49,949 nt of DNA from a phage. A model generated the notes under the pieces. It had not been told where the DNA came from, searched no databases, and was given only the letters and a program-made list of their open reading frames with translations. The position numbers and the translations under genes are program-made. Shown here in pieces: positions 2 to 42,546 of this stretch. The DNA is taken from sequence record OZ470806.1, one strand, 5' to 3'. The first letter of the stretch is position 1. Every line of letters starts with the position of its first letter.

Positions 2-523
2 ATGGCTAAAAACGTTGAGCCAGCAGTAAAGGCTTGCAATTTTAAAAAACTATATAATAAGCAATATGGCGATATAGCAAAAATGACAAAGGCGCACAAG
101 TACACGCCGGAGCAGGTATTTGATCTGGCTGTTCGTTACTTTACGTGGGCTGAGGAAAACCATATACAGGCTGCGGAAACGGCATCCTTTCAGGGTGACG
201 TATACGAAAGTAAGATTCACAAGCCGCGCGTGTTCACCTTAAATGGATTCCGCTTATTCGCTGGCCTTTCTGCCTCCGTACTTGAAAAATGGCGACGTGA
301 GCCAGGATTCAGCGATGTTATGGACTTTATCGACGGCGTTGTTTACGAGCAAAAATTCCAGCTTGCCGCAAACAATATTGTTAACGCTGGATTCATTGGC
401 AAAGAGATCGGCATTGAAAAGCCAGCTACCGTTACCATTGAGAATAACACAAGCGCCAGCGTTGACGCTGTAACGGCGGAGGAAGTCAAAGAGGCGGTAA
501 TTGACATTCTGGAGAAGATATAA
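2..523 (+). CDS. putative terminase small subunit
   Basis: 173-aa ORF whose stop overlaps the terL start at 523 (ATGA); first gene of packaging module; its RBS AAGGAGG sits at the window end (49938-49944), implying a circular junction. Confidence 0.5.
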   Translation: MAKNVEPAVKACNFKKLYNKQYGDIAKMTKAHKYTPEQVFDLAVRYFTWAEENHIQAAETASFQGDVYESKIHKPRVFTLNGFRLFAGLSASVLEKWRREPGFSDVMDFIDGVVYEQKFQLAANNIVNAGFIGKEIGIEKPATVTIENNTSASVDAVTAEEVKEAVIDILEKI

Positions 524-20610: not shown

Positions 20611-20640
20611 AAAAGGGGCTTTCGCCCCTTTATTTTTATT
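20611..20640. terminator. bidirectional terminator between convergent genes
   Basis: AAAAGGGGC-tttc-GCCCCTTTATTTTTATT, A/T runs on both sides. Confidence 0.6.
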
Positions 20641-20867
20641 TACAGACTGCAATCAGAGTTTTTAAAGTTGTCAATGCTTACCCACTGAAAATTAAACGGA
20701 TAGCCAGCCTTAACAAGAGTGCGGTCGCCAACTCGTTTTGCTCCAAAAATAGCAACTGAATACTGCATACCGCTATTTTCATAAATAGCCGTGCATTCAC
20801 GTTTAGGCATATTTGCGCAACCAGTCAGGGTTACGGCTGCAATCAAAACGGCGATTAATTTTTTCAT
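20640..20867 (-). CDS. small outer-membrane lipoprotein, Cor/Llp-like superinfection exclusion candidate
   Basis: 75 aa; signal peptide plus lipobox LTGC; two Cys in mature part; RBS AGGAGA; sits right after tail tip genes on opposite strand. Confidence 0.55.
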   Translation of the reverse strand: MKKLIAVLIAAVTLTGCANMPKRECTAIYENSGMQYSVAIFGAKRVGDRTLVKAGYPFNFQWVSIDNFKNSDCSL

Positions 20868-20898
20868 CTTGGTATCTCCTTCGTTGTTGTTGGTTGCA

Positions 20899-20941
20899 AC
20901 TATACACGATCTTACAGCAGGCGTTTAGCAAAAAGTGCTAT
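20899..20941 (-). promoter_or_regulatory. promoter of lipoprotein gene with conserved 20-bp element
   Basis: minus-strand ATAGCACTTTTTGCTAAAC + spacer + TATAGT upstream of ATG 20867. Confidence 0.45.
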
Positions 20942-21039
20942 TCTGTTCTTTTTGTTCTCGCGTGTTCTCAAATCTGCGGAGTCTTAAATTTAGCTCAAAA
21001 AGTGAACAATAATAGAGCGCAATACATACAGATAAATAT

Positions 21040-21190
21040 ATATACATACATATAAATCAATAAGTTAGCAGTATATATATTTATGTTTGTTCTTTATTGT
21101 TATCTATGTTTTGTGTGATTTTGTGTGTCTGGTGATTTTTCTGTGATTATGCATGTGTCAGTGGTTATGTGTGTATATATATCTATATCC
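21040..21190. repeat. AT/TG-rich intergenic repeat region, copy 1
   Basis: contains AAATCAATAAGTTAG (21054-21068), GGTGATTTTT and GTATATATAT blocks shared with 41365-41550. Confidence 0.5.
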
Positions 21191-21368
21191 GGCGTAAATT
21201 GAGGAACAAGAGAACAAAAAGACAACAAAGACATTTATCAATCACTTACATGTAAGTTTTGTTATCCAAGTTGGCGAGAACGTTGTTAAAACAGAAAAAA
21301 CAAAATAACTATTGACTAAACGCATCGAATAGCTACAATGCAGACATACCAACCAATGAGGGCAAATC

Positions 21369-22430
21369 ATGAATAAATTTATGGCGTACACAAGCGAAGA
21401 AATGAGCAATGAGCTTTATCACGATCCAGAAGCGTGGACGGCTGATTATGTTAGCGGATCAAGCCTTGCAGAGATTTACAGCACATGCCCGGCTGCGTGG
21501 AAGTTCAAGCCGCGTGACGATAAGAGTAAGGCGCTTGTTTTCGGTACGCAGTCGCATACCAACTTTGAAAGCAATGAGCTTTTCGAAAAAACCTATCGAC
21601 GCGCGCCAGCGCCAGAAGACTTTAAGGATCTGATAACTAGCCAAACTGCGCTTGCCGCAAAACTGAAATCATTTGGCCTGAAAGGTACAACCGGAAAGAC
21701 TTATCCAGACCTTATCAAAATGATGGTCGATTGCGGAGAAGACCTTAACGTTATGTGGTTGATTGAGATGATCGCAGAAAGCCAGGCCAGGGCCGACGGA
21801 GTGCAGTTAATCGACGCTAAAGACTACGACGCTTGCGTTGCAATGCGACAGGTTCTGGAATCAATACCGGAACATAACGCATGTATGAATAGCAAGACAG
21901 CACAACGTGAATTATCGTTGTTCGGTGAAATCAACGGCGTAAAAGTCAAAGTGCGATGCGATCACGTTGACGTAACAAAGAACGTAACAGCAACTTTGAT
22001 TGATGGTTACGATGAAAAAGGTCAACCGATTTGCCGCGATATTATTTATCCAGAGGCGATTGTGATCACTGACTACAAAACAACAATGAGCGCTAATCCG
22101 GTTGAGTTTATGCGACTGGCTTACAATCACGGCTATTATTTGAAAATGGCGTTGCAATGTGATTTATTCAGGAAAGCGTATCCAGAAGAAAAACGACCTA
22201 TAGTTGTGCGCCTGTTAGCGCAAGAGAAGAAAGAGCCTTATTTGCCGTTGGCTTTCCGCATGAACAGCGAGCAATTGAAGATCGGGCGCATTCAGTACAT
22301 GAGCGTAATTAACCAGTTTGCCATGTGCCAGCAACATGACGTTTGGCCTTCGTATTCAAACGGTGAGCCGGAGGTTTTCCTTGATACTCCTGATTGGGTG
22401 CGACGCCAGTTTAAGCAATATCTTATTTAA
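21369..22430 (+). CDS. recombination exonuclease, PD-(D/E)xK family (putative)
   Basis: 353 aa; RCDHVD and IVITDYKTT motifs; adjacent to Erf and SSB. Confidence 0.55.
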   Translation: MNKFMAYTSEEMSNELYHDPEAWTADYVSGSSLAEIYSTCPAAWKFKPRDDKSKALVFGTQSHTNFESNELFEKTYRRAPAPEDFKDLITSQTALAAKLKSFGLKGTTGKTYPDLIKMMVDCGEDLNVMWLIEMIAESQARADGVQLIDAKDYDACVAMRQVLESIPEHNACMNSKTAQRELSLFGEINGVKVKVRCDHVDVTKNVTATLIDGYDEKGQPICRDIIYPEAIVITDYKTTMSANPVEFMRLAYNHGYYLKMALQCDLFRKAYPEEKRPIVVRLLAQEKKEPYLPLAFRMNSEQLKIGRIQYMSVINQFAMCQQHDVWPSYSNGEPEVFLDTPDWVRRQFKQYLI

Positions 22431-27895: not shown

Positions 27896-28828
27896 TTAGA
27901 GAATTGATTCAGGTTTGAAAACCTTCCTCTCTATCCCTTGCCTGTAATTATCATTAATCGGCATCATAATTTCAAGTCCTCTTTCCTCGGCAGCAATGAT
28001 CGCGTCACGATCTGTGCTCTTACAGACAACTCGCATTCTTCTGTTGCCTTTGTACCTGTAAGCTACAATCTCAATGTTAGTTGCATCAAAGCAGGCCCAA
28101 ACCTCCTGACCAGTTGCAAGGTGAATATGTTGCGCATCAATCCAGTCAACGCAAAGATAGATCGTCTTATCTGTGCTTCCTGTTCTCACAACAGACCCGC
28201 GCGTGTAGTCCTTTGCGAGAAAAGACTGATTACCTTCTTCATCAATGAAAAGCACATTGCACATTTCATCATCAATTTCATCTGAATGTACCAAGTAACA
28301 TGGGAGCGCGTGAATGTATCGACCATCTTTAACGCCGCATTCATAATAACCATCTTCAGGAGGATATATCCCTTCATAGGTGCTTAACGGCGTGCGATCA
28401 AATTTTAGTGTTTTTGACATAACGCGCTCGCAGCATTCATGGCTTGCCTGTTTCCCAAACGAATAACCAGAATCACGAGATACTCGCTTATTTGCCTTGA
28501 TCCTATAGTCCTGCGGAACTTTTCCAAGAAAGCGTCCCAAAATATTGATCACTTCGCTGTAAGGTTCTCCGGTTAGCTTCATGATCCAACCAATTCCAGT
28601 ATCGTTTCCGCACACGTTGCAGATAGCGCCGCCGTCGCCTTTTTTATCTCCAAGTTTATCAGTCCATCTAAAGCGATCCTTTCCGCCGCAGTGTGGGCAA
28701 GATTGATGCTTGCCGTTAAAAACTTCATTTGGAAGACCGCAAATACTTTGTAGCGCCTCACGCCATAGTCCCTGCATATATGGGAGAACATCTTCCTTTT
28801 GATAAACCATAAAGTTTTCGTTGTTCAT
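27896..28828 (-). CDS. DNA primase (zinc-ribbon type)
   Basis: ATG 28828 with RBS GAGGTG; CPHCGG...CNVCG zinc-binding motif. Confidence 0.65.
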   Translation of the reverse strand: MNNENFMVYQKEDVLPYMQGLWREALQSICGLPNEVFNGKHQSCPHCGGKDRFRWTDKLGDKKGDGGAICNVCGNDTGIGWIMKLTGEPYSEVINILGRFLGKVPQDYRIKANKRVSRDSGYSFGKQASHECCERVMSKTLKFDRTPLSTYEGIYPPEDGYYECGVKDGRYIHALPCYLVHSDEIDDEMCNVLFIDEEGNQSFLAKDYTRGSVVRTGSTDKTIYLCVDWIDAQHIHLATGQEVWACFDATNIEIVAYRYKGNRRMRVVCKSTDRDAIIAAEERGLEIMMPINDNYRQGIERKVFKPESIL

Positions 28829-28883
28829 ATGCACCTCAAACAAAAAAGCCTGACAGATGATAACATCATGCCAGGCATTGTTT

Positions 28884-29357
28884 TTAGCAATTAGTGCTTT
28901 CAGGTTTATACAGGAATCCGCCAGGCTCATAATCTGACATTCTTACCACTCGCAACATTTCACGCTTATCACATCTCTTTGTGAGCGGTTTGCCATTGGA
29001 ATCAAATCGCAGGTCTGGACGACAGAATGATGCGCGATAGCCTTGACATCCATACTTTTTGTAATCGTTATGCACCTTTTGAGCGCCAGCGGCTGAAATC
29101 ATACCGCGAACACGCCACTGATTTACGGTTTGCTGGCTAACGTTAAGACGTTTTGCCATTGCTGATACACTTCCGTAATACTCAATAAGGATGTCAAGGC
29201 GTGCTTTTAGCCCGGCGCGCACTTCATCTTTTAGTACATAGTATCCTGTAGGGCGCTTGCGCTTTTTCTTATCCTTACCTCGTCGAGTTCCGTTATTGCC
29301 ATTGATTGTGCGTTTGTCAATCTTGCCTGTTGATACCGCGATTCGCTGTTCTTTCAT
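28884..29357 (-). CDS. HTH DNA-binding protein (putative regulator)
   Basis: 157 aa; basic KDKKKRKR tract; helix-turn-helix-like MAKRLNVSQQTVNQW. Confidence 0.5.
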   Translation of the reverse strand: MKEQRIAVSTGKIDKRTINGNNGTRRGKDKKKRKRPTGYYVLKDEVRAGLKARLDILIEYYGSVSAMAKRLNVSQQTVNQWRVRGMISAAGAQKVHNDYKKYGCQGYRASFCRPDLRFDSNGKPLTKRCDKREMLRVVRMSDYEPGGFLYKPESTNC

Positions 29358-29370
29358 TATTCATTCTCCA

Positions 29371-29414
29371 ATAGCATTTTTTGTTAAACGATGATTTAAT
29401 GATTGTGTATTATA
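29371..29414 (+). promoter_or_regulatory. promoter with conserved 20-bp element (helicase)
   Basis: ATAGCATTTTTTGTTAAAC + 19-nt spacer + ATTATA. Confidence 0.45.
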
Positions 29415-29446
29415 CACGCCAAATGGCATTACTCAAAGGTTTTAGA

Positions 29447-31486: not shown

Positions 31487-31892
31487 TAAAGGCGATTATC
31501 TGGAGTTTTACGAAAGAGATCCGACGGATACGCTAAAGGAGGAATCACACCAGATCGGGGCGTTTCAATGGTTAACTTATGCTCATCCTGAATTTCTTGC
31601 CTGGCATACTAAAAATGAGGGCGACAAGGGGATCGCCACTGCAATGATGGATCAGCAAGCCGGACTAGTTAAGGGCGTAAGTGATTTCATCATCCTGATT
31701 GGATTAAAAGGCCGCTATCCGTTTGCAGCAATTGAGATGAAGCGCGTCAATAAGTCAGGCAAGGGTAAGGCTTCACCAGTCAGCAAGGAGCAAAAAGCCT
31801 TCTTGCGCCGTGTGCGTGAGCTTGGCGGATTCGCTGCCGTAACATACGGATATAAGCAATTCATGATCGCGGTAGAATACATGATGAAATAG
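31473..31892 (+). CDS. VRR-NUC-type PD-(D/E)xK nuclease
   Basis: 139 aa; GVSDFIILI...AIEMKR motif. Confidence 0.6.
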   Translation: MAMTDKGDYLEFYERDPTDTLKEESHQIGAFQWLTYAHPEFLAWHTKNEGDKGIATAMMDQQAGLVKGVSDFIILIGLKGRYPFAAIEMKRVNKSGKGKASPVSKEQKAFLRRVRELGGFAAVTYGYKQFMIAVEYMMK

Positions 31893-36706: not shown

Positions 36707-38290
36707 TTACCCCAGCAATGTTGGATTTACGAAAACAACGCCATTAATCACACAAATATAATTTCTTTCTTCAAGCATCGGCAGCAGTTGCGTTTCCATA
36801 CGCTTCATTACGCCAGCCTGGCCAACAAAAGGCTTAACTTTTCGTGCAGCCTCATATATGGCGCGCACATTCAAGATTCCCTTATTAGCCTTGCCGTGTC
36901 GAGTGATGATCTCGATTAGTTTACCCATTTCAGCATCATCACCAGCATAGCCAGAGGCGTTGGCGGCGCTAATGTATGTTTTGCTCAACTCGCTAAACAT
37001 CAGCAGTGCTTCCTGAACGGTTTCAACTTCAATCTCTTTCGACTTCTGAGGGTATCCACCAGGATTAAACCAGTTGCGGATAGTGTGCAAAACTGAAGCA
37101 ATCCTGATCACCTGCTTATCCATTTTGCCAAGCGCGCCGCGCAGCATTGTATGCGAATACTTTCCTCCATCGGCAAGGTGCGGTTCCATCTCCTGACGAG
37201 CCATGTTAAGCACTCGCATTGCTGATTTGCTGATCTTAAGCTGGATGTTTGATTCACTCATGATGTTATGGATCAGCTTAAAATATTGGCTTTTCAGTTC
37301 TCCATCAACAGGTTCATAAGTAGAATCACCGTTATCATCAACAAACTTTCTACGGCCTAAAAATGATTCCTCACGCACAAGCAAATAACGCTCACTTACA
37401 CCGATACCGCGCGATCCTGCATCCATGATGGCATTGATTGTTTCATCCTGGGCAATTACCGCCATACAGCCAAGAGCTTTAAAACTCATATTGTTGTCAG
37501 CGTTTGCACGAGCTATAGAAACATGACCATGATCCCATGCTTTCAGCACAAGTTCGCTGTTGGTTTTACGTTCGCTATTGGCATATGTCAGACCTAAAAG
37601 GCTGTTAATACTAGTTGCCTCGTCTGAAATCACAGCAAAGTTACCCTGGCGATTGTTGATTCTTGCAAGTCCTTCCGGCGTGGTGTCGGACACAGGGAAA
37701 ACGATGTCACACATCTTTTCCAGTTTTTCTTCCAGATCTTCTTTCTCCTGGTACAGAGATTCCATATCAGCGCCGGAGCGCTCGCTTTTCATCTCTTTTG
37801 CAAGACCTGCCAACTTTGCCTGAATCTTTTTTCTTTCCTTCTTTCGCTGATCGTTAATTCTTTCCACTTCTGCAACCATTGGAGCAAGTGCCAGGCTGTT
37901 AACGGCAGATTTACCAGTTGAAGGAGGCTGGCTTGTGACAACATAAAGAGCTGTCGGCTGATCCGTTCCGTGATACTCAACCGTGAAGCGTCCAAGCATT
38001 GCAGCAGACACGCAGCCTATAAAATGCATATAGGCCGATGATTCAGGGAATTGAACAGAGCGAGCAATGTTGCGCGCCAACTTGCCAACAACATCAACAT
38101 CATTGCCAAGAGAAATTACAGGGTAGCGATCGTTTCCGTTATTAACATCATTAACCTCACCCCAAAAGCTAGACGATTGACGGTATCCGTTTGCCTGAAT
38201 GGACACGCGCACAGGAGACAATCCTTGTGCATCAGCTAATTCGATAATTTGTTTTGGTGTTAGTTTATTGGTTTCAAACGAAAAATTCAT
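36707..38290 (-). CDS. large P-loop protein of unknown function
   Basis: ATG 38290 (MNFSFET) after RBS AAAGGAG; Walker A-like PPSTGKS; charged coiled-coil segment. Confidence 0.5.
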   Translation of the reverse strand: MNFSFETNKLTPKQIIELADAQGLSPVRVSIQANGYRQSSSFWGEVNDVNNGNDRYPVISLGNDVDVVGKLARNIARSVQFPESSAYMHFIGCVSAAMLGRFTVEYHGTDQPTALYVVTSQPPSTGKSAVNSLALAPMVAEVERINDQRKKERKKIQAKLAGLAKEMKSERSGADMESLYQEKEDLEEKLEKMCDIVFPVSDTTPEGLARINNRQGNFAVISDEATSINSLLGLTYANSERKTNSELVLKAWDHGHVSIARANADNNMSFKALGCMAVIAQDETINAIMDAGSRGIGVSERYLLVREESFLGRRKFVDDNGDSTYEPVDGELKSQYFKLIHNIMSESNIQLKISKSAMRVLNMARQEMEPHLADGGKYSHTMLRGALGKMDKQVIRIASVLHTIRNWFNPGGYPQKSKEIEVETVQEALLMFSELSKTYISAANASGYAGDDAEMGKLIEIITRHGKANKGILNVRAIYEAARKVKPFVGQAGVMKRMETQLLPMLEERNYICVINGVVFVNPTLLG

Positions 38291-38993: not shown

Positions 38994-39037
38994 ATTATGC
39001 CAGGCTTTTACACCTGGCTTTTAACAAAAAGTGCTAT
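38994..39037 (-). promoter_or_regulatory. promoter with conserved 20-bp element (minus strand)
   Basis: minus-strand ATAGCACTTTTTGTTAAAA + GCCAGGTGTAAAAGCCTGGC + CATAAT; near-identical to copy at 42471-42514. Confidence 0.45.
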
Positions 39038-39744
39038 TTTGCGTTAGCTTCAAAGACGGCGCGAGCAAAACCTCGCGGAGTGAGGGAGCGGATCATCTTT
39101 GTGCGAGATGATTTTCCGCCAGTTTTGGCCCAGCCTGGATTATCTTTGTCATTCTCTTTCGGCAGGATTAAAGCGCGCGGAGGAATAACAAATCCGTTTC
39201 CAGTCCAAAGGCATGTTTTCTTAAAGTACCGATCCCGCGCAGGAATAATATCAGGGAAGTCGGGATGCTTATCATCTTCCGGCAGATAGCCAGCATAATC
39301 GCACGGATGGAACGTATAATCAGGCTTACGCCATAACGTTGACAGCTTGCCTACAGGATTTTCGATCATGTAAGGAACGCCGAAATAATCAGCGATATGC
39401 GCCGCGATTCTGCAAGTGTCGGCGGCCTCATCCTGGAAAGAGGGATTCTCAAGGCGTTTTTTGGACCAATGGCGAGATCCGCTATTTGCAAGGTCAGTGC
39501 ACGGCGGAAATGCCATAATGAAATCAGGCTTACCCCAATTTTCAAGTTTTGCGGTATATTTGAATAGCTCATCAATCCACACATTAACGTAAAAAATATT
39601 ATCATGGATTATGCGCACTGATTGGTAATCTCCGTGATCGGCATCATCGTAATTAAAGCAAATGCATTTATATCCAGCATCAGCCCAATCTTTAACGGCT
39701 TTACCAGATCCATCAAACAAAGAGAATATTAAACCTTTATACAT
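39034..39744 (-). CDS. minimal DNA (cytosine-5)-methyltransferase-like protein
   Basis: 236 aa; FSLFDGSG (motif I-like), FPPCTDLANSG (PC motif with Thr in place of Gln), MIENPVG (ENV-like), GNGFVIPP (motif X-like); no large target-recognition domain. Confidence 0.5.
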   Translation of the reverse strand: MYKGLIFSLFDGSGKAVKDWADAGYKCICFNYDDADHGDYQSVRIIHDNIFYVNVWIDELFKYTAKLENWGKPDFIMAFPPCTDLANSGSRHWSKKRLENPSFQDEAADTCRIAAHIADYFGVPYMIENPVGKLSTLWRKPDYTFHPCDYAGYLPEDDKHPDFPDIIPARDRYFKKTCLWTGNGFVIPPRALILPKENDKDNPGWAKTGGKSSRTKMIRSLTPRGFARAVFEANAK

Positions 39745-41044: not shown

Positions 41045-41088
41045 AATATACCAATCAGAGGCGCATCGGTTTTAACAAAAAGTGCTAT
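41045..41088 (-). promoter_or_regulatory. promoter with conserved 20-bp element (minus strand)
   Basis: minus-strand ATAGCACTTTTTGTTAAAAC + spacer + TATATT inside dyad CGATGCGC/GCGCATCG. Confidence 0.45.
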
Positions 41089-41364
41089 TTGCTGACTGGT
41101 CATTATTCCATCTATTCCATTAATCAGGAATAACATGAATAACTCATTCGCGATCACTTGGATTGTGAGACTTTGAGTTTGGTCAATTTTAATCAAGTGA
41201 TTAACTTTTTGTGTGGAGGGGATAGAGAAACGCGGCCCTCTTGCGTCCTTTCCGGCAATCCTGGCGCGCGCATCTGTTATTTCTGTTCCACATGTTATCT
41301 CAAATAAGCCTCCGCACTTTTAGATAACAGAATCGGCGTTCATCAACAAAAAGAACAAAATAAA

Positions 41365-41550
41365 ATTTATATATATACCAATAAAATCAATAAGTTAGTT
41401 ATATATGTATTTATATTTGTTATTTACTGTTGAGCTTGTTCTATGGGTATATGGTGGGGTGGTGTTGTTTGTGGTGATATGTATGTGTGATTGTATATTT
41501 TTTAATCAATGGTGATGTGTGGTGATTTTTGTATGTATATATATGGGTAT
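41365..41550. repeat. AT/TG-rich intergenic repeat region, copy 2
   Basis: AAATCAATAAGTTAG at 41384-41398; GGTGAT-type and GTATATATAT blocks as in 21040-21190. Confidence 0.5.
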
Positions 41551-41743
41551 GGAGCAATCCTCCGTCAACCAAGTCAACAAGGTCATTTTTAACATAAAAA
41601 CCAATGACTTAACTGAGGCATTTTGTTATCTTTAAACGCGCCACATGCCAAAAATTGTTATTAAAACACAAAAATACATTGACACGTATGAAAGGCAAGG
41701 CAATAATGCATCCAGTTTAAACGCAACAAAAGGAGTAGACGCC

Positions 41744-42214
41744 ATGAGCGAAGAAAATATTAGCGCCATGTCGCGTAGTGAGTTCTGCGATATGCTTCGC
41801 AGCCTGGGCGCGGCAATTGGTAGCGGCGAGCGTAACAATGTATTCATGCCAGCACTTTTCTTGTGCGCTAACGTGGAGAACGGCGACGCAATTACAGCAT
41901 CGTACATGCGCCAGGTTGTCAACCGTGTGCCAGAAGTAAAGCAAAAAGGCGTGATCAGCATTAAGCGAAAGGTGACTGATGAGGGTGATGGCTTTGTGTT
42001 TGCGCTCACTGAAGCCAAAAGCAAGCCTCGCGTGCTGACTGGAGACGATATAGCGAAACTTGAAATCAAGTGGCGAGCAAAGTTTATTGCTCAACTTCTG
42101 AAAACTCAGCCGAGAATAAGCGATCTGGAAGGCGAGCGCCTGGAGGGTGCAGCAATCGCACTTGAGCGAATGAATGAAATGCTTAACGAGATGATAAAGA
42201 TGGGGGATGAATAA
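41744..42214 (+). CDS. hypothetical early protein
   Basis: ATG 41744 (MSEEN) after RBS AAGGAG; first gene after divergent AT-rich region. Confidence 0.45.
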   Translation: MSEENISAMSRSEFCDMLRSLGAAIGSGERNNVFMPALFLCANVENGDAITASYMRQVVNRVPEVKQKGVISIKRKVTDEGDGFVFALTEAKSKPRVLTGDDIAKLEIKWRAKFIAQLLKTQPRISDLEGERLEGAAIALERMNEMLNEMIKMGDE

Positions 42215-42474
42215 TGAATAAGGCATTAATTGGAGTTTTGATTGCAATCGCTACCCTGACCGGATGCGAAAAGGCATCTGAATCAACAGTTGTCGTAGGA
42301 GTGGAGTCAGATTTCAAAGTCGGTCGCCTGTTTACTGTTGATGGATGTACTGCGTACCGATTCTATGACAACGGTCGAGCAATCTATTACACCAATTGTA
42401 ATGGCGCAACGGATAGCACATACCGCAGCGGCAAAAACGTAATGCACCAACAAGTCACAACAGATATGAAATAG
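42214..42474 (+). CDS. small lipoprotein (second exclusion-type candidate)
   Basis: 86 aa; signal peptide plus lipobox LTGC closely resembling that of 20640-20867; two Cys in mature part. Confidence 0.5.
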   Translation: MNKALIGVLIAIATLTGCEKASESTVVVGVESDFKVGRLFTVDGCTAYRFYDNGRAIYYTNCNGATDSTYRSGKNVMHQQVTTDMK

Positions 42475-42514
42475 CACTTTTTGTTAAAACGCCAGGTGCA
42501 AAACCTGGCATAAT
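42471..42514 (+). promoter_or_regulatory. promoter with conserved 20-bp element
   Basis: ATAGCACTTTTTGTTAAAAC + GCCAGGTGCAAAACCTGGC + CATAAT. Confidence 0.45.
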
Positions 42515-42546
42515 AGCCTCATCGAAACGAGATTGAGGAAAACAAA

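Follow-up and report, generated by a model that had tools for sequence, protein, structure and literature searches.

Paired non-coding modules with phased boxes, an unstable core and an early promoter as candidate replication origins of a T1-like coliphage

The window analysed here, the whole 49.9-kb stretch of DNA, belongs to a T1-like coliphage (Drexlerviridae, Hanrivervirus). A gap of about 500 bp separates the gene for the Cor lipoprotein (20640-20867, leftward) from a recE-type exonuclease gene (21369-22430, rightward), and both genes carry the same annotation in relatives. The first-pass annotation had described this gap as a non-coding region between a leftward lipoprotein gene and rightward recombination genes, with runs of TATATA, repeated TG-rich units and a 15-mer that recurs in the same orientation in a second region. 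As a description of the sequence this is accurate: there are just two copies of the 15-mer, AAATCAATAAGTTAG, in the window (+ strand, at 21054 and 41384); 12 of the 20 TATATA hexamer positions of the window lie inside the two regions; and the TG-rich units are found at 21107-21175. Two small open reading frames (20813-21055 on the + strand and 21242-21409 on the - strand) were rejected as genes, since they are mechanical, overlap cor, the promoter or the recE start, and fall in a region that is broken by non-triplet indels in relatives. A known RNA was also rejected, with 0 Rfam matches at gathering thresholds in the whole window.

The gap contains one of two copies of a paralogous non-coding module: copy 1 at 20940-21345, and copy 2, 20 kb away, at 41271-41715. 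Local alignment of 21034-21158 with 41363-41488 gives a score of 95, as against 21.9 +/- 2.6 for shuffled sequences and 47 for the reverse-complement control. Global alignment of 20940-21368 with 41271-41743 gives 83.5, as against 19.3 +/- 6.6 (maximum 41.5) for shuffles that keep the local composition in 20-nt blocks, and is about 10 sd above them. Similarity is far over that of the shuffles, so that chance resemblance between AT-rich sequences, which the first-pass annotation had allowed for, is not borne out. The similarity to a region 20 kb away was therefore correctly seen, but its extent, put at about 160 bp, was underestimated: because the whole module, promoter included, aligns far above shuffles, the shared part is about 400-440 bp. 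The copies have diverged but keep the same order of elements: three phased TGTT boxes; an A-rich block; a TATA-rich core with a perfect IHF consensus (in the shared 15-mer); three further phased TGTT boxes; a G/T-rich tract; inverted AACA boxes with a second IHF-type site; and, at the end, a near-consensus sigma-70 promoter directed rightward. Between the left TGTT triple and the core triple, copy 1 measures 144 bp and copy 2 measures 143 bp.

Both regions are bordered on the left by a member of a 21-nt repeat family. The first (AATAGCACTTTTTGCTAAACG, on the - strand, 20922..20942; repeat families D3/D4/D11) lies upstream of cor and forms the border of copy 1, outside the duplicated module, and the second (41069..41089, - strand; families D3, I10-I19) lies upstream of the leftward operon with the DUF3987 helicase. 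The family is described in phage TLS (PMC11447400).

No DNA in the window is less stable than the two cores, of which that of copy 2 ranks first and that of copy 1 second; they are also its two lowest-GC segments. The TATA-rich core of copy 1 (21023..21085) has 19% GC per 100 bp and a 60-mer dG of -59.4, and the A-rich block and TATA-rich core of copy 2 (41345..41417) have 17% GC per 100 bp and a dG of -56.7; the genome mean is -81.6 (sd 4.8) and the next least stable segment is at -64.3. The cores are 4.6-5.2 sd from the mean, as AT-rich unwinding elements would be. No good candidate for a promoter within the core was found in either direction by a consensus scan and a PWM scan; TATAAT-like hexamers in the core are conserved, but lack a -35 element at 16-18 bp. 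The G/T-rich tract that follows spans 21107..21175 in copy 1 (+ strand, G+T 0.83), where it contains GTGTGATT, GGTGATTTTT and GTGATTATG units, and 41441..41545 in copy 2 (+ strand, G+T 0.79), with zero C in 41446-41505. A C-free G/U tract could not fold stably in any event. In relatives the composition of the tract is conserved and its sequence is not, and in phage haarsle the copy 1 tract is annotated as 'repeat_region'.

Each region has about 12-14 short TGTT-type boxes, phased at 9-10 bp, which are direct at the left and inverted at the right of the core. In copy 1, the left triple is TGTTCTT, TGTTCTC, TGTTCTC (20944..20969, + strand; starts 20944, 20953 and 20963, spacing 9-10 bp) and the core triple is TTGTTCT, TTGTTAT, ATGTTTT (21084..21113, + strand, spacing 9-10 bp), with a period-10 array found by TRF at 21109-21127; the inverted boxes, GAACAAGAGAACAAAAAGACAACAAAGAC (21204..21232, - strand; TRF period 9/11), are reverse complements of TGTT boxes. 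In copy 2, the triples are TGTTATT, TGTTCCA, TGTTATC (41275..41299, + strand) and TTGTTAT, CTGTTGA, TTGTTCT (41416..41443, + strand), and the inverted boxes GTCAACCAAGTCAACAAGGTCA are followed by a one-mismatch IHF-like sequence, AACCAATGACTTA (41599-41611), in a segment (41564..41611, - strand) that is paralogous to 21204-21248 of copy 1. The two regions make up 2.5% of the sequence and hold 15 of the 57 genomic copies of TGTT[CA]T[CT], with 1.4 expected, an enrichment that is optimistic because the motif was defined post hoc, on sequence already seen. The TTTTGTT and TGTT columns are invariant across Tempevirinae, and the box sequence is lineage-specific: TGTTCAC in the TLS clade; and TGTAACA in T1, where all six genomic TGTAACA/TGTTACA copies fall within the two homologous regions. 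A tandem-repeat search of the regions returned short low-scoring arrays alone, with periods of 9-12. The multiple short phased repeats characteristic of iteron origins are present, then, in the form of putative protein-binding boxes with a motif defined after the fact.

The repeats singled out by the first-pass annotation fare differently. GGTGAT-type units, likened to iterons, have 4 of their 56 genomic copies in the two regions (1 of them in copy 1), and were rejected as weakly enriched and without conservation in relatives. DnaA-box-like arrays are not found, as TTWTNCACA has 3 matches in the window and 0 in either region. GATC is depleted, with 2 occurrences in the two regions against about 6.5 expected (263 in the genome), so that there is no oriC-like cluster, and the two regions contain no Chi sites.

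Matches to the IHF consensus WATCAANNNNTTR are concentrated in the same DNA. Copy 1 has a core match, AATCAATAAGTTA (21055..21067, + strand), within the shared 15-mer (21054-21068), and a promoter-proximal match, TATCAATCACTTA (21236..21248, + strand); region 2 has the same core match, AATCAATAAGTTA (41385..41397, + strand, within the 15-mer at 41384-41398), and another at 41191-41203, inside a segment (41090..41270) without a copy 1 counterpart. These are 4 of the 10 matches in the window, two per region, compared with 0.09-0.14 expected when the dinucleotides of each region are shuffled (P = 0.008 and 0.016). In a set of 44 distinct loci, the region has 1.53 matches per kb and the flanks have 0.10 per kb, a 15-fold difference. 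In relatives the specified positions of these predicted IHF sites are kept while the N positions drift, and the promoter-proximal consensus is retained at -133/-141 from the recE ATG in Hanrivervirus and is also present, on the opposite strand, in the T1 clade. The module of the TLS clade and the module core of T1 lack the strict consensus. A screen of Keio knockout strains with LL5, a TLS-like phage whose clade is without this consensus, had no ihf gene among the reported hits.

Each module ends in a predicted strong sigma-70 early promoter, a prediction supported by hexamers, score and homology. The A-rich upstream block and promoter of copy 1 (21275..21339, + strand; TTGACT-16-TACAAT at 21312-21339) would drive recE-erf-ssb, and those of copy 2 (41654..41707, + strand; TTGACA-17-AATAAT at 41679-41707) would drive the small early genes that begin at 41744. 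They match 10 and 11 of the 12 consensus hexamer positions, respectively, and have PWM scores of 10.9 and 12.4 (99.99th percentile, 8.9). TATTGAC and ATAATG/ACAATG are conserved in Tempevirinae promoters, and the copy 1 and copy 2 promoters are homologous to P51 (29110..29137) and P01 (523..549) of TLS, whose annotation lists three sigma-70 promoters in total. Of the functions proposed in the first-pass annotation, a strong early promoter with an UP element is supported by the sequence.

A packaging site, also proposed there, is not. The segment at 41090..41270, which has an inverted repeat (ATTATTCC...GGAATAA) in addition to its IHF consensus, is entirely missing from copy 1, and it is here that the ends of related phages map. 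The T1 record opens with a terminal repeat annotated as 2.8 kb long, and position 1 of that record corresponds to about 41177; the record of phage G29-2 starts at the equivalent of 41224; and the PhageTerm terminus of phage MSK (36,862) falls in the same interval of its own genome. The inferred packaging ends of T1, MSK and G29-2 correspond to about 41177-41250, 100-220 bp to the left of the copy 2 core. Since copy 1 lacks the segment with the packaging ends, the shared module is not the cleavage site; judged from these relatives, virion ends map neither to copy 1 nor to the shared module.

The two-copy layout is kept in most of the Drexlerviridae genomes examined, T1 included. Copy 2 loci in relatives were anchored on the helicase gene, because the first early gene is poorly conserved and gave two loci only. 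The two copies of the same genome align with scores of 50-127 in 16 of 18 genomes. The T1 copies score 66 against each other and 46 or less against orthologues in other subfamilies. In one genome (040344) the two modules are of different subtype and score 43, so the copies need not match closely. Box spacing is conserved across genera that are only about 70% identical.

The phage encodes its own primase, which has a zinc ribbon, and two helicases, and has no recognisable initiator gene. A sequence search of helicase and primase against solved structures gave no meaningful matches. The model of the DUF3987 helicase (pLDDT 89), however, matches MCM subunits (Foldseek E = 3e-5) and has a C-terminal winged helix (H-b-H-H-b-b, residues 451-527), a domain that is among the most diverged protein parts between T1 and this phage. 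In T1, the annotation of the primase notes a similarity to P4-family alpha proteins, and in the search against solved structures a 157-residue HTH protein (28884-29357) matches Cro proteins. Five unrelated phage contigs with the same helicase and primase genes have a long non-coding gap with an AT-rich core and lineage-specific repeats: GGTAAGAT in L102 and L106 (seven copies counted in L106); ACACGCCCACG in L104; and CACCCCTAAAT in L108. The gap adjoins the helicase gene in four of the five and lies 5.4 kb upstream in L104. In three contigs (L102, L104 and L106) no DNA of the locus is less stable than this gap; in L107 it ranks second in instability, and in L108 the least stable 60-mer starts just outside it. 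Where examined, these contigs have one such region and not two.

We tentatively read the two modules as paired replication origins fused to early promoters, and would put the chance that this is right at a little below even. This reading is preferred because the cores are the least stable DNA and are flanked by phased lineage-specific boxes and IHF consensus matches; both protein binding and origin function are inferred from the architecture. The modules are the best candidates so far, though unproven, for the replication origins of the T1 family. The origin proposed by the first-pass annotation is thus plausible on grounds other than its own, the GGTGAT and DnaA basis being unsupported. A phage-encoded protein would bind the boxes, the best candidate being the MCM-like DUF3987 helicase acting through its C-terminal winged helix, with the Cro-like HTH protein as a further candidate; IHF would bend the module DNA; the TATA-rich core would open; and the helicase and the zinc-ribbon primase would be loaded there. 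Transcription from the adjacent early promoter may help. The winged helix is, however, typical of MCM proteins generally and need not bind origin DNA. GC skew mirrors gene orientation, with symmetrical values of +0.13 and -0.12, and carries no signal of an origin in this genome. Our literature search found no origin mapping and no transcriptome of a T1-like phage. In the SU57 paper no site resembling oriC was found, and the TLS paper reports that no iterons were found (PMC11447400). The latter lists the homologues of the right-end promoters, P01 and P51, and the 21-nt repeats of the left borders; its accessible portion mentions neither the duplication of about 400 bp nor phased TGTT boxes, IHF sites or a minimum of stability.

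Several known origins resemble this arrangement in part. In Bacillus phage SPP1, a virulent pac-type siphophage, the replisome organizer G38P binds two distant regions, oriL and oriR, in which repeated boxes lie beside an AT-rich segment. Here, too, a virulent pac-type siphophage has two paralogous sites in the same orientation, non-coding or partly coding and tens of kb apart, with short repeated boxes and a potential AT-rich unwinding region. Unlike SPP1, this phage lacks a recognisable gene for a G38P/O-type initiator, and its candidate origins are both intergenic, are joined to sigma-70 promoters and include IHF-type sites. Satellite phage P4 has two cis sites 4.5 kb apart, ori and crr, with type I iterons, TGTTCACC, that are bound by the C-terminal winged helix of the alpha primase-helicase. 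Two cis sites with short TGTTC-type boxes (TGTTCAC in the TLS clade) and a helicase with a C-terminal winged helix are shared with P4. In this phage, however, primase and helicase are separate and the helicase is DUF3987/MCM-like and not demonstrably alpha-like; the similarity of the boxes covers only 5-7 nt and may be due to chance, and T1 itself uses TGTAACA. With separate primase and helicase genes and no established homology to alpha, we do not class the module with P4 ori/crr. Finally, the T7 primary origin and T4 oriF/oriG have a promoter beside an AT-rich unwinding element. Here, too, a strong promoter is linked to the most AT-rich DNA of the genome in more than one copy, but it points away from the core, and none was found that reads into it.

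One argument against origins is that the modules lie upstream of early promoters and in fixed register with them. As the promoter itself is within the duplication, many of these observations are equally explained if the modules act in transcription only. The boxes could be operators or enhancers for a phage regulator, such as the Cro-like 157-residue HTH protein, which, aided by IHF and by curved AT-rich DNA, would first stimulate and later silence the two principal sigma-70 early promoters. We consider this the main alternative, somewhat less likely than paired origins. The spacing between the boxes and the near-consensus promoter with its A-rich block is conserved; the last of the inverted boxes, AAACAGAAAAAACAA, directly adjoin the -35 element; an inverted pair in T1 copy 2, GTGTAACAC...GTGTTACA, lies just downstream of a TTGACA hexamer at the right end of the region; the promoter-proximal IHF site is about 100 bp upstream of the start and conserved in two subfamilies; the phage does encode a Cro-like regulator; and these are two of the three sigma-70 promoters of TLS. 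However, the third sigma-70 early promoter (29436, - strand) manages with a 90-bp intergenic region that has no boxes and no AT-rich core, and about 350 bp of conserved upstream architecture containing the least stable DNA far exceeds the known needs of activation by UP elements or IHF. Phased direct repeats of 5-7 bp are also unusual as the target of a Cro-type dimer, and in the unrelated contigs the repeats and AT-rich core adjoin the helicase gene in four of five cases, in L107 downstream of the gene.

It is improbable that the modules are divergent intergenic spacers without a dedicated function, left by an old duplication and compositional convergence, in which AT-rich bendable DNA persists through operon separation, non-specific binding of nucleoid proteins or a recombination hot spot. 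In favour of this view, AT- and GT-rich low-complexity DNA is easily aligned, the G/T tract is conserved in composition alone, and different module subtypes can be combined in one genome. Such spacers would not explain an alignment so far above shuffles of the same local composition, box columns that are invariant and keep their spacing between such distant genera, lineage-specific motifs confined to the two regions, or IHF consensus positions that are kept while their N positions drift.

Least probable of all is that the small terminase subunit recognises the shared module, which would then be a part of pac with IHF as cofactor and with copy 1 as a second or auxiliary packaging site: boxes flanking an IHF consensus 100-220 bp from an inferred end do recall lambda cosB and P1 pac, where terminase-binding repeats are arranged around an IHF site, but copy 1 has no associated end, the end segment is outside the duplication, PhageTerm gave one significant terminus in MSK, and the repeats and core of L102 and L106 adjoin the helicase gene, which in L102 places them some 8 kb away from the terminase genes. 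One database record (BEC3) begins inside copy 1, but record starts in AT-rich DNA are easily assembly artefacts, and the BEK/BEC records are one 51,031-bp genome opened at different points, which weakens this start as evidence. Wietzorrek et al. (2006) are reported, in PMC8421802, to have proposed ATATA repeats as the pac of T1. Repeats of this kind, once suggested as pac, recur at a second locus that has no packaging end, and the large "UTR" at the start of the T1 genome can now be split into a packaging-end segment, an AT-rich module and an early promoter.

A more specific form of the origin reading is speculative, and we regard it as doubtful: that the T1 family replicates from two paralogous origins, each opened with the aid of IHF by a self-loading MCM-like AAA+ helicase whose C-terminal winged helix reads phased, lineage-specific TGTNNNN boxes, and each tied to a host-type early promoter, one of them beside pac. 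If true, a classical coliphage would use the initiator-helicase logic of SV40 large T antigen, papillomavirus E1 and P4 alpha. If the modules are transcriptional only, they would still show where two of the three host-type promoters in this phage group are controlled. T1 belongs to the seven classical T phages, and members of the Drexlerviridae are often met as contaminants and are also candidates for therapy; a defined pair of candidate origins, with boxes, predicted IHF sites and a candidate binding protein, makes the question of where the T1 family begins replication directly testable.

The phage carries two copies of a non-coding module, copy 1 at 20940-21345 and copy 2 at 41271-41715. The first-pass annotation had described a shared stretch of about 160 bp; its coordinates and description are correct, and its length is too small, as the resemblance runs on both sides of the core. 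The 15-mer AAATCAATAAGTTAG on which it relied does occur exactly twice in the window, at + strand positions 21054 and 41384, 12 of the 20 TATATA positions fall inside the two regions, and the similarity of the cores stands up to alignment (local score 95 versus 21.9 +/- 2.6 for shuffles). Global alignment of 20940-21368 with 41271-41743 scores 83.5, against 19.3 +/- 6.6 (maximum 41.5) for shuffles that kept composition in 20-nt blocks. This score, together with the resemblance left and right of the core, indicates a duplicated unit of about 400-440 bp that includes a promoter.

Copy 1 is flanked by the Cor lipoprotein gene (20640-20867, - strand) and a recE-type exonuclease gene (21369-22430, + strand), both annotated in the same way in relatives. 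Region 2 is flanked by a leftward operon, which includes the DUF3987 helicase gene and whose first gene truly starts at ATG 41013 rather than TTG 41196, and by rightward small early genes from 41744. The second gene of this rightward operon (42214-42474, + strand) encodes a lipoprotein of 86 aa with a signal peptide (MNKALIGVLIAIATLTGC) closely like that of Cor (MKKLIAVLIAAVTLTGC), and the corresponding DNA forms an inverted repeat, 79% complementary over 48 nt. Methyltransferase genes are present too (39034-39744), and the T1 annotation likewise has a gene of the Dam type. In BLAST searches of phage genomes, the Escherichia/Shigella phages damhaus, haarsle, pSf-1, JLBYU41 and Henu8 are 93-98% identical to both regions, and many further T1-like phages about 70%; the haarsle record gives the taxonomy as Drexlerviridae, Tempevirinae, Hanrivervirus. 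About 18-20 GenBank records (MG065636-MG065687) named 'Campylobacter phage' are also about 93% identical over both regions, and their stated host, Campylobacter jejuni, looks doubtful.

Eleven parts follow one another in identical order in the two copies: three TGTT(C/A)T boxes 9-10 bp apart (20944-20969; 41275-41299); an A-rich block with AACA boxes; a TATA-rich core that holds the 15-mer; three further TGTT boxes, again 9-10 bp apart (21084-21113; 41416-41443), 144 bp from the first triple in copy 1 and 143 bp in copy 2; a G/T-rich tract (69 nt, G+T 0.83; 105 nt, G+T 0.79); a second, short TATATA run; inverted AACA-type boxes with a period of 9-11; an IHF-type site; TTTTGTTATC; an A-rich block with TTGTTA(TT)AAAAC; and, at the right end, a near-consensus sigma-70 promoter. 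The two cores are the lowest-GC 100-bp windows (17% and 19%; next lowest 26%) and, by nearest-neighbour energy, the least stable 60-mers in the window (-56.7 and -59.4; next -64.3; mean -81.6, sd 4.8). The G/T tract of copy 2 contains a C-free stretch of 60 nt that is unique in the window; among relatives, the composition of the G/T tracts is kept and their sequence is not. We tentatively read both modules as phage replication origins, giving this slightly less than an even chance.

The main rival reading is that the modules control only the two early promoters, to which they are physically fused and with which they were duplicated. These promoters, TTGACT-16-TACAAT (21312-21339, + strand) and TTGACA-17-AATAAT (41679-41707, + strand), have PWM scores of 10.9 and 12.4 (genome-wide 99.99th percentile 8.9) and are the counterparts of P51 and P01, respectively, in the related phage TLS; the scan found only weak matches, and none near that strength, elsewhere in either region. 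A third sigma-70 promoter, TTGAGT-16-TATAAT (-35 at 29436, - strand), which serves the HTH-primase operon, works from a divergent gap of about 90 bp (29358-29446; homologous to TLS P57/DR11) without boxes or AT-rich core, and thus early promoters do not generally require the module. On balance, control of the promoters alone seems somewhat unlikely. Overlapping the third promoter is a 21-nt repeat of rightward orientation (29369-29389), for the SF2 helicase. This repeat, AAATAGCACnnnTTGnTAAAAC, lies upstream of most operons in the direction of transcription (among other positions, at 31887, 32928, 42469, 42932, 44995 and 47834 on the + strand and 20922, 36175, 38342, 39018 and 41069 on the - strand) and is already reported from TLS, T1 and Rtp (PMC11447400). 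After it there usually comes a variable GC hairpin and, beyond that, ATAAT (as at 42469-42515). TTGTTA(TT)AAAAC, which adjoins both sigma-70 early promoters upstream (21284-21293; 41656-41667), is the 3' half of the repeat.

In the origin reading, the boxes would be bound by a phage-encoded protein. TGTT[CA]T[CT], a motif defined after the data were seen, occurs 57 times in the window, 15 of them inside the two regions against 1.4 expected. Column conservation in Tempevirinae supports the boxes independently of this post hoc count: in a copy-1 alignment of nine genomes, in which different genera are about 70% identical, the box-cluster columns TTTTGTT and TGTT are invariant while their surroundings drift, and the same is true of the box columns in copy 2. 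An CGGCGTAAAT-like word also flanks the core on both sides in the copy-1 alignments. T1, a member of the Tunavirinae, uses another word, since all six TGTAACA/TGTTACA sites in its 48.8 kb lie in the two homologous regions, as do all four occurrences of GTGTAACA; in the Rtp-like phage MSK, TGTAGGAAT repeats come after the core. That the modules are non-functional spacer is improbable given this pattern of conservation. The proposal that GGTGAT units form iteron or DnaA-box-like arrays is not supported, as only 4 of 56 lie in the two regions (barely enriched), relatives do not conserve them, and neither region contains a DnaA box. GATC is depleted (2 sites in the two regions, which span 1.2 kb, versus 263 in 49.9 kb), and neither region has a Chi site.

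Within the 15-mer, AATCAATAAGTTA is an exact fit to the IHF consensus WATCAANNNNTTR. Both strands of the window together hold 10 matches to this consensus; the two regions account for four of these, each on the + strand (21055, 21236, 41191 and 41385), and two per region correspond to P = 0.008 and P = 0.016 in dinucleotide-preserving shuffles of each region. Across 44 distinct loci, the density upstream of recE is 1.53 per kb in the region versus 0.10 per kb in the flanks, with matches at two fixed positions from the recE ATG (-314 and -133/-141). The four N positions vary (TAAG, TGAG, TAGT, TGGC, TGAC, TTAC and others) and the specified positions are kept, as would be expected for a selected binding site. 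The site is not universal: neither the TLS clade nor the core of the T1 module has the strict consensus, and no ihf gene is listed by a Keio screen that used LL5, a TLS-like phage.

For copy 1 we used 45 IMG/VR loci with recE as the anchor, and for copy 2 loci with the helicase as the anchor. Both regions were available for 18 genomes, and in 16 of these the copies of one genome align in the same orientation with local scores of 50-127 (reverse-complement controls, 31-69; shuffle background, computed for the window only, about 22). Aligned with one another, the two T1 copies reach a score of 66, and against the orthologous regions of Tempevirinae genomes they reach at most 46; sequence-specific features thus co-evolve within a lineage. 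One genome (IMGVR_UViG_3300045988_040344; loci L005 and L053) combines a Hanrivervirus-type copy 1 with a copy-2 core of another genus' type (score between its regions, 43), and modules thus appear to be exchanged independently of each other by recombination.

Region 2 has also been linked to packaging. Position 1 of the T1 record (NC_005833), the start of its annotated 2.8-kb terminal repeat, lies inside the region-2 homologue and aligns to about 41177; the G29-2 record (MK373798) starts at the equivalent of 41224; and the single PhageTerm terminus of MSK (36,862) has the leftward 21-nt repeat of that phage on one side and its AT-rich core on the other. The SU57 paper places the T1-type pac in the same untranslated region. 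The ends of T1, G29-2 and MSK all fall in 41090-41270, a segment without counterpart in copy 1, so that the module of region 2 is preceded by a repeat-type leftward promoter and a packaging-end segment, and that of region 1 by a leftward repeat only. The "five ATATA repeats" reportedly proposed as T1 pac (as cited in PMC8421802) therefore recur at a locus without a known packaging end. That the shared module is a platform for terminase is improbable, as the packaging-end segment is absent from the shared part. An inverted repeat in that segment (ATTATTCCATC...GGAATAA, 41101-41134), kept in both this phage and T1 where overall identity is low, is a candidate terminase recognition element. The records of BEC3 (MN158217) and BEK1-23 (MN158211) start in copy 1 (equivalent of 21082) and copy 2 (41323), respectively; these are probably assembly breaks in AT-rich DNA, since the BEK/BEC records represent one 51,031-bp genome opened at different points.

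Which proteins might bind the modules? Pfam and PHROGs identify a zinc-ribbon primase (27896-28930), a Cro/YdaS-like HTH protein (28884-29357), an SF2 helicase and its VRR-NUC partner and the DUF3987 "DNA helicase" (36707-38290, - strand); no initiator of the O, DnaA or RepA type is recognisable. Modelled with AlphaFold from 30 homologues (pLDDT 89.2, pTM 0.87), the DUF3987 protein has its best solved-structure matches in MCM2-7 subunits (Foldseek, with E = 2.7e-5 and a probability of 1.0; TM for the whole multidomain chain, about 0.35), and its last 77 residues are modelled as an H-b-H-H-b-b winged helix. The DUF3987 protein of T1-like phages is thus predicted to be an MCM-like AAA+ helicase and not of the DnaB type. 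Between this phage and T1, the winged helix (47% identity) and the N-terminal 60 residues (45%) are the most diverged parts (core, 62-68%); this divergence is consistent with a candidate role in lineage-specific DNA recognition.

Phages of other types with the same set of helicase, primase, SF2-helicase and recombination genes carry distant homologues of this helicase (36-41% identity), and in each of five such contigs a long non-coding gap lies next to the helicase gene or, in L104, heads its gene block. In L102 and L106, the gap directly upstream of the gene contains GGTAAGAT/ATCTTACC repeats (seven counted in L106) and forms the stability minimum of its locus, as does the gap of L104, 5.4 kb upstream, with ACACGCCCACG repeats. 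The gap directly downstream in L107 has ACTTAC and GGTTGCCC repeats and is the second least stable DNA of its locus, and that just upstream in L108 has three CACCCCTAAAT copies, the least stable 60-mer there starting about 45 nt before the gap and partly overlapping a short called gene. The layout of repeats, AT-rich core and repeats travels with this set of replication genes, though with a changing repeat sequence. This is as expected for an origin with a cognate binding protein; a regulator with its operators fits too.

Judged by sequence, an unwinding-type core, phased lineage-specific direct and inverted repeats, IHF-type sites and a linked helicase and primase without a separate initiator together correspond to the textbook layout of origins in phages and plasmids. 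GC skew in the window follows transcription and is uninformative as an origin marker. Two distant copies have precedents in SPP1 (oriL/oriR), P4 (ori/crr) and the multiple origins of T4. In the literature searched, whose coverage was incomplete, we found no description of the duplicated module. The 2024 TLS re-annotation (PMC11447400) gives promoters and 21-nt repeats, notes that iteron-like repeats turned up nowhere in the genome and raises open questions on T1-like phages. If the modules are not origins, they would be an ordinary, though elaborate, early control region; if they are, a long-standing gap would be filled for a classical phage family, by a known kind of element.
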